NCBI GenBank assembly: GCA_028710695.1 | Contig: JAQTTP010000004.1 | Span: 57,102 to 89,101, forward strand | Source: Candidatus Iainarchaeum sp. | GTDB lineage: Archaea; Iainarchaeota; Iainarchaeia; Iainarchaeales; 0-14-0-20-30-16 | DNA: 32,000 nt | Direction: 5' to 3' | Part shown: one piece after another, positions 13,259 to 15,117 of the stretch | Position numbering within the stretch: position 1 is the stretch's first letter | How the letters are laid out: every line of letters begins with the position of its first letter | Program-made: the position numbers and the translations under genes | The notes under the pieces: model-generated | Seen by the model: the letters and a program-made list of their open reading frames with translations, nothing else | The model's database searches: none | What the model was told of the DNA's origin: nothing

Positions 13259-13690
13259 GTGAAGGACGATTTTTATGATTTTGACCCATTCAAATTGTTT
13301 AGAAAATTCGAAAAAATGTTCTCGGACATGGAAACTATGGATAGAAAGATAAAAGCAACAGTAAGAGAGCCATTGGTTGATGTTTCTGAAACTGAGGATG
13401 AAATTAAGGTTTTAGTTGAGCTTCCAGGGGTGGACAAGAAAGACATAGACTTGGAAGTGAAAGGAAATTTTTTGATAATTAAAGCAGGAATTTCAAGGCA
13501 AAATAAGAAAGAGCAAAAGGATTACTTGTATCAGGAAAGGACTTATCAGCAGTATTATAGAATGGTGCCTTTGACTAAAGAAGTAGATCCGAAAAAAATA
13601 GAGGCAAAGTATAACAATGGAATTTTGGAAATTATTTTAACAAAGAAAACAGAATTAAAAAAAGTAGTAACTAAAATAAAAGTCAAATAG
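13259..13690 (+). CDS. hsp20: Small heat-shock protein, Hsp20/alpha-crystallin family
   Basis: Alpha-crystallin core: DVSETEDEIKVLVELPGVDKKDIDLEVKGNFLIIKA ... AKYNNGILEIILTK. GGGGTGAG Shine-Dalgarno site upstream of the GTG start. Confidence 0.9.
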   Translation: MKDDFYDFDPFKLFRKFEKMFSDMETMDRKIKATVREPLVDVSETEDEIKVLVELPGVDKKDIDLEVKGNFLIIKAGISRQNKKEQKDYLYQERTYQQYYRMVPLTKEVDPKKIEAKYNNGILEIILTKKTELKKVVTKIKVK

Positions 13691-13700
13691 GGGGTTTTTC

Positions 13701-13976
13701 ATGGCTTTATTAGCAAAAGTTGGTGTCTTTAGTCTTGCAAAGACTTTGTCATTATATAATATTTTATTTGGTATTATTGTGGCAATAATTACTTTGATAC
13801 TAAAGATATTTTCAGTTGGTACTCTGGCAAGTTATACTTGGGGTGCTGCAGTAATATATGAAGTAGTGTTCATAATCGCTATGCCAATAATTGGGTTCAT
13901 AATGGGTATAATACTTGCCTTGATAATTAATTGGGCTCTAAAAGTTGGTGGCGGATTAGAAATAAGTCTAGAATAA
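13701..13976 (+). CDS. Small integral membrane protein (91 aa, 2-3 TM segments), unknown function
   Basis: AGGGGG Shine-Dalgarno site 7 nt upstream. Strongly hydrophobic. Lies 10 nt after hsp20 and 1 nt before the next gene, so it is likely co-transcribed. Confidence 0.6.
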   Translation: MALLAKVGVFSLAKTLSLYNILFGIIVAIITLILKIFSVGTLASYTWGAAVIYEVVFIIAMPIIGFIMGIILALIINWALKVGGGLEISLE

Positions 13977-13977
13977 T

Positions 13978-15117
13978 GTGGTGTCTGTGCCTATAACTAT
14001 GCCAATAATATTTGATAAGTTGAGGAGGAGAACTAAGAAGTCTGTGGTTAGTGTAGACTATACTGTGTTCATCTTCTTCTTTATCATTATTCTTGTTTCT
14101 CTAATCCTTTTTTCTTTTACTGACAAATTTCTTAGCGTTCTTTTTTTGTGTTTAGTTTTCTTGATATCTGTTTTATTTCACGATATAATACAGATTTTAG
14201 TTGCAAGAATCTTTAGCTATAAGCTGAAAAGATTTATTCTTTTTCCTTTTGGGTCAAAGAAAGTTTTTGATAGGCCTTTTGATAAAGCGGTACATGAGTT
14301 AGTTTATGCTTTTTCTGGGCCGATAAGTAACTTGATTCTATTATTGATTGCCTTTATAGTTGCAACTAATATTCCGGGTGCTTGGCCGCAATCCATAATG
14401 TTGAAGGAAACATTGACTGCTCAGACATTTGATGTTGCTTTAATACAATTTCCTTTGTTCGTAGTGTTTTGGATAAACTTCTTATTATTTGTTTTTAACC
14501 TTTTAGTTCCTGCTCTGCCTCTAGATGGTGGTAGGATTTTCCATTCTTTGTTAACAATATTCTTTGGAAACTATTCATCAAATAAGATACTGCCAATATT
14601 TAGTAAAGTCTTGGGTTTTATTGTAATTCTCTGTGGTTTTATATTTTGGGATATCTTGGTTTTAGTCCTGGGTGTTTTCATATATTTTATGAGTAATAAA
14701 GAAGCAAAAGAAAACGAACTTTATGTTACTCTTGAAGGTCAAAAAGCCGGAGACTATATCTCTACAAAATACCTTATGGCTAAAGCAGATGACTCTGTAT
14801 TTGATGTTTTTACAAAAATGTCTGAACAGAGAGAAGTTGATGTAATTGTTGACTTTGGAAAGGATGAATATGGAGTAATAAGTGTTGATACTATTGCTTC
14901 GATTCCTAAGTTACACTGGGCTTCTGAGAAAGTTGGGGATCATTCTAAGATAGTAGATCATGTTTTGCCTTCTGAAGGCCTGGCTTTTGTTGTTCAATAT
15001 ATGATGGAAAACAACCTGAACATTTTACCTGTTTTCAGTACAAAAGACAAACAAATAAATGGGGTTCTTAAGAGAATAGATATTGCAAGTGTAATTAGAT
15101 TAGGTAGAATTTCTTGA
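13978..15117 (+). CDS. Site-2 protease (peptidase M50)-like membrane protein with a C-terminal CBS pair; the HExxH motif is degenerate
   Basis: M50 second motif FNLLVPALPLDGGRIF (about 14500-14540) and the expected TM topology are present. Two CBS-like repeats sit at the C-terminus (GVISVDTIASI ... ILPVFS...INGVLKRIDIASVIRL). The position that normally reads HELGH reads HDIIQ (nt 14179-14193). Confidence 0.8.
   Translation: MVSVPITMPIIFDKLRRRTKKSVVSVDYTVFIFFFIIILVSLILFSFTDKFLSVLFLCLVFLISVLFHDIIQILVARIFSYKLKRFILFPFGSKKVFDRPFDKAVHELVYAFSGPISNLILLLIAFIVATNIPGAWPQSIMLKETLTAQTFDVALIQFPLFVVFWINFLLFVFNLLVPALPLDGGRIFHSLLTIFFGNYSSNKILPIFSKVLGFIVILCGFIFWDILVLVLGVFIYFMSNKEAKENELYVTLEGQKAGDYISTKYLMAKADDSVFDVFTKMSEQREVDVIVDFGKDEYGVISVDTIASIPKLHWASEKVGDHSKIVDHVLPSEGLAFVVQYMMENNLNILPVFSTKDKQINGVLKRIDIASVIRLGRIS

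Follow-up and report, generated by a model that had tools for sequence, protein, structure and literature searches.

We analysed a 32,000-nucleotide stretch of contig JAQTTP010000004.1 from Candidatus Iainarchaeum sp. (the whole stretch is hereafter called the window), which belongs to a genome of 0.9 Mb that is 86% complete. Three open reading frames follow one another there on the forward strand, all in the same direction: the first encodes an Hsp20 small heat-shock protein, the second a membrane protein of 91 amino acids and the third a homologue of the M50 or site-2 proteases (S2Ps) with a C-terminal pair of CBS domains (Table 1). The locus is flanked on its 5′ side by a divergent gene for ribosomal protein S8e and on its 3′ side by the gene for a large surface protein. 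In the third protein, the HExxH motif of M50 peptidases is replaced by H-D-I-I-Q, and we found this kind of replacement throughout one archaeal family. Judging from sequence, the protein is probably a pseudoprotease that acts together with the small membrane protein encoded upstream of it.

The third protein has the architecture of an S2P. Its residues 57–218 matched PF02163 (Peptidase_M50) over profile positions 2–220 of 221 (E=9e-13; 48.5 bits against a cut-off of 27.2), and two further stretches matched PF00571 (CBS), which places the protein among the CBS-type S2Ps, called group III here in line with the wording of PMC11486902. An AlphaFold2 (AF2) model built on a 91-sequence alignment (predicted local distance difference test score (pLDDT) 91.2; predicted template modelling score 0.83) showed the S2P core fold, in which strands 83–89 and 92–97 behind transmembrane helix 2 (TM2) form the re-entrant beta-hairpin. 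Foldseek against the PDB ranked the Methanocaldococcus jannaschii S2P MJ0392 first (3b4r_A; E=1.3e-9; template modelling score 0.79 over the target; root-mean-square deviation 2.9 Å), followed by SpoIVFB (8vjm and 8vjl); further matches were CBS pairs (2ef7, 2p9m and 3kpb).

In the zincin mechanism of all characterised S2Ps, the two histidines of HExxH are zinc ligands and the glutamate is the catalytic base. The window protein has H68-D-I-I-Q72 at this place, in a register on which three alignments agree, those to the Pfam profile, to the M. jannaschii S2P (3B4R) and to SpoIVFB. In a phmmer search of all PDB chains, SVLFHDIIQILVAR paired column by column with SVVLHELGHSYVAK of MJ0392 (3b4r, E=7e-18) and also with VLIHELGHAALAV of SpoIVFB (8vjl), setting HDIIQ opposite HELGH. 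Of the five motif columns in the 91-sequence alignment, the first is an invariant H, while the second is E and the fifth H in at least 90% of the sequences. The catalytic glutamate is therefore replaced by aspartate and the second zinc-binding histidine by glutamine, whereas the aspartate of LDGG, the third metal ligand, is kept. This is how the first-pass annotation had read the codons, and its call of an M50 architecture with a C-terminal CBS pair agrees with the profiles and the fold. Since it lacks HExxH, the feature that defines these proteases, the protein is best classified as a homologue of M50 that is predicted not to be a peptidase.

No second HExxH is present within the 379 amino acids. 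The sole other His-Glu pair, H106-E107 in HELVY, was considered as a displaced catalytic motif and rejected: it lacks a second histidine, and its glutamate aligns with a different conserved residue, the near-invariant glutamate before TM3. H106 is glutamine in two members of the clade. E107 aligns with the region of SpoIVFB E83, a residue at the water entry that is also in contact with the CBS domain (PMC11486902). A third switch fixed in the clade lies at position 27, where canonical neighbours read ELHWSF or ELHSTF.

HDxxQ was found in all seven genomes of the window's GTDB family, which comprise two genera (HDIIQ twice, HDLAQ, HDLMQ, HDFVQ, HDGFQ and HDLPQ), and in metagenome proteins (P0001, 2, 4, 5, 6 and P0121); the clade also includes the variants HDTVQ and HDLVQ. 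The closest database relatives (93, 78, 44, 42 and 41% identity) have HDxxQ throughout, the next tier (about 25–30%) has HExxH, and HELxH was present in each orthologue that we inspected from the order's other families. Among 269 retrieved homologues, 250 carried HExxH, nine belonged to the HDxxQ clade (six full-length proteins and three fragments), nine were truncated at the N terminus and one read QELGH. This last protein (P0113; 387 amino acids, from a metagenome) is of the bacterial M50-CBS type, has the first zinc histidine changed to glutamine and lies outside the HDxxQ clade. When 1.84 billion representatives were searched exhaustively with a profile, only three from the clade came up (632, 452 and 361 bits) before scores dropped to 184 bits. 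At 50% identity, the clade amounts to two or three clusters, all from one family of uncultivated DPANN-type archaea, a label based partly on genome size.

The motif is lost in a gene that is under purifying selection, the combination expected of an S2P pseudoprotease such as EGY3. Across nine independent assemblies, the motif codons vary synonymously (CAC or CAT for histidine, GAT or GAC for aspartate, CAG or CAA for glutamine), and Nei–Gojobori ratios of non-synonymous to synonymous substitution (dN/dS) for six pairs were 0.03 in the least saturated pair, 0.07–0.10 in four and 0.29 in one. These results speak against a further alternative explanation, namely that HDIIQ is an artefact, a strain-specific lesion or part of a decaying pseudogene, or that a HExxH lies elsewhere in the protein. 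We give this explanation almost no credence, as the nine assemblies share H-D-x-x-Q despite their synonymous differences, the frames are intact, dN/dS is far below 1, and the only other His-Glu pair aligns with another conserved glutamate. The replacement is clade-wide and selected, and the prediction of the first-pass annotation, an inactive or chemically altered protease, is supported.

In a maximum-likelihood tree, the HDxxQ proteins were monophyletic (100/100) and sat among archaeal M50-CBS sequences, away from the bacterial outgroups. No branch of the tree was longer than their stem, at 1.46 substitutions per site; inside the clade, branches were short. Comparing 10 clade members with 70 canonical relatives, we found the fixed differences H27D, E69D, H72Q and T202N, plus A95K, P101F and L61F. 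Unchanged between the two sets were H68, P90, G92, E107, G114, N174, A179, P181, D183-G184-G185-R186 and E242, so that the identical positions include N174, P181, D183, G184, G185 and R186 of the retained motif. These comparisons show one ancient switch in the clade, a subsequent burst of change and, from then on, strong conservation of the switched residues. In the sister genus (L014-L017, L008 and L009), the conserved proline five residues before the ligand aspartate is replaced by F, W or L (FNLFIFAMPMDGG); the window's genus retains it (FNLLVPALPLDGG). This loss, which fits a relaxed catalytic constraint, looks like a second step of active-site erosion.

The small membrane protein is a conserved neighbour. 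Its AF2 model (pLDDT 95.5) is a hairpin of two transmembrane (TM) helices, with a strand at residues 2–4, helices at 9–36 and 47–83 and a strand at 86–88, and it shares the two-TM layout of DUF3566/CofA proteins. In 7/7 family genomes, a homologue is encoded immediately before the M50 gene, and a small gene of this kind precedes the S2P homologue in every clade member. The same kind of small gene lies directly upstream of M50-CBS genes with HELxH and His27 in five genomes from four other families (G026, G032, G074, G099 and G117) and, in G049, G064 and G097, on the same strand within 2 kb of the HExxH orthologue; in G007, G020 and G033, the small gene and the M50-CBS gene are unlinked. Because the small gene also precedes HExxH orthologues, the pairing of a small DUF3566-like protein with an S2P-CBS protein is older than the change of the active site. 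The linkage is specific to the window's archaeal order; no M50 gene adjoined the more distant DUF3566-like genes in the three contexts that we examined (Methanolobus and others).

A profile made from nine of the small proteins retrieved the clade and then small proteins annotated as PF12089/DUF3566, at E values of about 1e-6 to 1e-3 (for example, 4e-6). Scored against PF12089 itself (cut-off 22.2 bits), the partner in G026 reached 23.4 bits, that in G032 20.1 bits and a family-mate of the window protein 12.4 bits. The window protein gave no PF12089 match in Pfam at E≤1 and is linked to DUF3566 only via the profile and intermediates. The end motifs S-x-A-K and N...GG-x-E-x-E are common to the alignment of the small proteins. 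The model of the window protein had no significant match among PDB folds, and Pfam gave no BofA-family match at E≤1, so that homology to BofA has no support.

Other canonical M50-CBS genes of the sister families stand directly behind different polytopic membrane genes instead: DUF4013 (E=2e-22 and 3e-25), or Yip1 (E=3e-9) with the DUF3566-like gene after it (Table 1). Any of the DUF3566-like, DUF4013 and Yip1 proteins may be a substrate or regulator of the CBS-type S2Ps of archaea. Four sister-family genomes also encode, two genes ahead of the canonical M50-CBS gene, a soluble protein with the shared pattern ETP..(V/L)M.K......S(L/F)(F/Y).(S/N)GKI.VK.

The heat-shock gene has a narrower association with the pair. 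Its product matched PF00011 over residues 42–142 (E=1.1e-18; 67.6 bits against a cut-off of 20.8) and the archaeal Hsp20 model NF041800 at E=2e-25, below the equivalog cut-off. As the one PF00011 match in the window genome, it is the sole small heat-shock protein detected there. It adjoins the module only in the window's genus, in 3/3 genomes (G000, G001 and G002) and on two metagenome contigs. In the sister genus, which carries the same HDxxQ protein, the neighbours of the module are a divergent NYN-domain gene and Memo/AMMECR1 genes; the single Hsp20 gene of these genomes either sits on a different contig or was not found. We therefore reject the idea that Hsp20 generally belongs to the system. 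The first-pass annotation had coupled the S2P homologue both to a tiny membrane protein and to Hsp20: the former coupling extends through the clade and beyond it, whereas the latter ends with the window's genus. The module may have a role as a membrane-stress holdase.

The same annotation had the genes packed with spacers of 10 and 1 nucleotides. The spacer between the Hsp20 gene and the small gene is indeed 10 nucleotides. The second measures 1 nucleotide if the S2P homologue starts at GTG 13978 and up to 22 nucleotides otherwise, in-frame GTG 13987 and ATG 13999 being equally possible, because relatives begin MSVPIIF or MPIIF and residues 1–20 are unstructured in the model (pLDDT <50). Behind the Hsp20 stop codon, the DNA reads GGGGG TTTTT C ATG. 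The G-run resembles a Shine–Dalgarno sequence for the 91-residue protein, and the T5 run, of a type able to serve as a weak archaeal terminator, might reduce the expression of both membrane genes relative to Hsp20. In a relative of 78% identity (L006, and likewise L007 and L013), about 300 nucleotides are inserted between the small-protein gene and the S2P-homologue gene, so translational coupling of the two is not obligatory. By eye, the L006 insert resembles a row of short hairpins or inverted repeats, among them gcaaatttctgtgcaaacagaaatttc and aacttttcgaaagaaaagtt, and could be an element resembling a miniature inverted-repeat transposable element, or a structured RNA.

Table 1. Features of the locus in the window and of related loci. 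Positions without a prefix are those of the window; prefixed positions are those of the locus or contig named.
Feature	Position	Strand	Basis
Hsp20/alpha-crystallin small heat-shock protein, 143 aa	13259-13690	+	PF00011
Two-TM hairpin membrane protein, divergent DUF3566/CofA-like, 91 aa	13701-13976	+	AF2, profile search, gene order
S2P homologue of family M50, CBS pair at the C terminus, 379 aa, predicted pseudoprotease	13978-15117	+	PF02163, PF00571, 3b4r
D27 (GAC), third clade-fixed switch, end of N-terminal strand/start of TM1	14056-14058	+	His in 99% of 70 canonical relatives
H68-D69-I-I-Q72 at the place of the HExxH zinc-binding/catalytic motif of TM2	14179-14193	+	codons CAC GAT ATA ATA CAG
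E107, near-invariant Glu of M50-CBS proteins, before TM3	14296-14298	+	invariant or ≥90% in alignments
N174-LLVPALPL-D183-GGR, retained NxxPxxxLDG-type motif with third metal-ligand Asp	14497-14535 (D183 14524-14526)	+	NLLVPALPLDGGR
Tandem CBS domains, about residues 258-375	14749-15102	+	PF00571, AF2 secondary structure, Foldseek
G-run and T5 run between Hsp20 stop and 91-aa gene	13688-13703		
Insert of about 300 nt between small-protein and S2P-homologue genes	L006:3702-4000		
M50 paralogue, 448 aa	L001:1468-2814 (G000 C26:12456-16253)	-	PF02163
Minimal M50 paralogue, 196 aa	L003:1075-1665 (C3)	+	PF02163
Polytopic membrane genes upstream of sister-family HExxH M50-CBS	L019:667-1350; L021:650-1381; L026:355-1065		
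Soluble protein, about 95-110 aa	L019:335-634; L020 (- strand frame, 113 aa); L021:378-662; L022:1108-1410		

The third gene is a family-specific descendant of an ordinary group III (CBS-type) S2P. In the ancestor of this small-genome, DPANN-type family, its active site changed once, HExxH turning into HDxxQ and His27 into aspartate; a burst of sequence change came next, after which strong purifying selection froze the new state. We propose that cleavage of peptide bonds is lost or very poor, most likely because one of the three zinc ligands, the second histidine, is gone and the general-base glutamate is shortened to aspartate. The parts that would hold a client appear to be kept, namely the re-entrant beta-hairpin, the LDGG helix, the water-channel glutamate and the nucleotide-sensing CBS pair. 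The two-TM DUF3566/CofA-like protein may be an ancestral substrate or regulator, or an adaptor, since sister families have it in front of orthologues with an intact catalytic site, too. In the HDxxQ family, the two proteins would associate stably without cleavage, and their complex could bind or scaffold transmembrane segments or could regulate the remaining active M50 proteases of the genome. In the window's genus only, the pair lies behind the single Hsp20 gene of the genome and is hence probably expressed with the heat-shock response.

Several points weigh against this proposal. The small-protein family also occurs in genomes without M50-CBS proteins (for example, in many of family f31), and distant DUF3566-like genes are unlinked to M50 genes. 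We infer both the interaction of the small protein with the S2P homologue, for which gene order is the basis, and the co-transcription of Hsp20 with the membrane genes. In addition, the strict invariance of H68, D69, Q72 and D183, and of the water-channel glutamate, exceeds the needs of a simple scaffold; the site could thus still bind a metal and hydrolyse. Aspartate is a conservative replacement for a general base, and glutamine is able to ligate metals.

The last of these points lead to the main alternative, that the protein is still an enzyme, in which HDxxQ and D183, perhaps with D27, would form an oxygen-richer metal site, rather than one with tightly bound zinc, and Asp69 would be the general base. 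Intramembrane proteolysis would then go on, its chemistry or specificity changed, and the upstream two-TM protein would be the substrate or regulator, as in the sister families. We consider this possible, if on the unlikely side. It is consistent with the invariance of H68, D69, Q72, N174, D183 and E107 across about 41% identity at dN/dS values of 0.03–0.1, and with the nature of the substitutions, as E to D, H to Q and H to D are all chemically related and need one nucleotide change each, which does not look random. Neither the core fold nor the CBS pair has lost any part, and the partner gene is the same as that beside active orthologues. However, both histidines of HExxH are required as zinc ligands, and its glutamate as catalytic base, in all characterised S2Ps, and we know of no natural active zincin with HDxxQ. 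The further loss of the NxxP proline in the sister genus also argues against retained catalysis, and the long stem branch points to a changed function. E44Q is the catalytic-glutamate variant used in the structure of SpoIVFB with pro-sigmaK (PDB 8vjm; PMC11486902). It is rather unlikely that HDxxQ, D183 and H27D make up a re-engineered metal centre of one histidine and oxygen-donor ligands whose metal is something else than tightly bound zinc; such a protein could hydrolyse with a new specificity, or sense metals or ions in a CBS-coupled manner, and would work on or through the DUF3566-like partner.

A pseudoprotease with a small membrane partner, the explanation that we prefer, would not leave the cell without S2P activity. 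Searching the same assembly with PF02163, we found two canonical M50 proteases on other contigs, unlinked to the locus: one of 448 amino acids with HEFSH...PFDGG (103 bits) and a minimal one of 196 amino acids with HELSH...PPLDG (45 bits). In the longer protein, an insert of about 200 residues, possibly PDZ-like although Pfam shows no PDZ domain, separates HEFSH from PFDGG. A 175-residue DUF3267/M50B-like zincin with HEFTH is also encoded in the genome. Proteolytic S2P function is thus still in the cell. None of these three proteins has CBS domains, and a second M50-CBS protein was not found in any genome of the family, these being 76–86% complete; the HDxxQ protein therefore appears to be the family's counterpart of the canonical M50-CBS protein of the sister families.

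The coexistence of two canonical M50 genes with the HDxxQ gene is what would be expected if the dead S2P regulated its active paralogues by competing for substrates or handing them over, with no chaperone-type role of its own. There is precedent for such a function, in that pseudoenzymes often regulate their active relatives (PMC9355673), as iRhoms do for rhomboid clients (PMC3149277). We nevertheless consider this form of regulation improbable: the paralogues come from other M50 subgroups, one having a long insert and the other being minimal, they are unlinked and on other contigs, and nothing connects their substrates to the HDxxQ protein. Moreover, this idea is a sub-case of a pseudoprotease acting with a partner and no true alternative to it.

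Comparison with known systems places the window protein close to MJ0392 (3B4R) and SpoIVFB (8VJL/8VJM), with which it shares PF02163, the transmembrane core with its re-entrant beta-hairpin, the aspartate of NxxPxxxLDG, the glutamate before TM3 and the CBS pair. It differs from them in having HDxxQ, without the catalytic glutamate and the second zinc histidine, in having aspartate at position 27 and in sitting on the longest branch. A second known system is EGY3, a conserved S2P pseudoprotease of plant chloroplasts that is induced by heat and high light and that its authors describe as the only pseudoenzyme of the family, found in plants only (PMC9355673, PMC10978774). Like EGY3, the window protein is an M50 homologue that is conserved without HExxH, and its link to stress is a co-located Hsp20 gene in one genus. 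Unlike EGY3, as far as its description allows comparison, the window clade is archaeal, of the CBS type, nested among DPANN M50-CBS proteins and equipped with a conservative HDxxQ and a small membrane partner. The HDxxQ proteins, predicted S2P pseudoproteases, have an independent, archaeal origin, as their position in the tree shows.

For the partner, the nearest characterised protein is CofA of Corynebacterium glutamicum (DUF3566, PF12089), a two-TM protein that binds the transmembrane domain of the penicillin-binding protein PBP1a (PMC7205459). CofA proteins of this and other Actinobacteria are likewise small and consist almost entirely of two transmembrane helices, and the partners of canonical M50-CBS proteins reach or approach the PF12089 cut-off. 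By contrast, the neighbour at the window locus is an S2P homologue and not a penicillin-binding protein, and the hosts are archaea without murein. As a working analogy, the small protein may dock into the S2P core as BofA and SpoIVFA do on SpoIVFB; the 91-residue protein, however, shows no sequence relationship to BofA among its Pfam matches at E≤1 and has no histidine or cysteine, and the Bacillus subtilis protease is active, with an inhibition that signalling relieves. The iRhoms and Derlins, rhomboid pseudoproteases that have lost catalysis, keep client binding and regulate the fate of membrane proteins (PMC3149277), offer a parallel in concept only, that of an intramembrane protease fold that has lost catalysis and binds clients; their fold is that of an unrelated serine protease, they are eukaryotic, and there is no homology.

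The only S2P-family pseudoprotease that we found described in the literature is plant EGY3, and archaeal CBS-type S2Ps such as mjS2P have no known natural substrate or partner (PMC11486902). The locus offers a predicted archaeal pseudoprotease clade that evolved independently, is cleanly delimited and has a conservative motif under strict selection, and its catalytically intact direct orthologues allow side-by-side comparison with the HDxxQ proteins. As the clade is small and confined to one family, we regard it as a variant of some use and not as a great surprise. If the motif does mark a re-engineered metal centre, the DUF3566-like, DUF4013 and Yip1 proteins would give the group III S2Ps of archaea their first candidates for a natural substrate or regulator. 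The recurrent two-TM DUF3566/CofA-like neighbour provides a concrete candidate partner or substrate for CBS-type intramembrane proteases.

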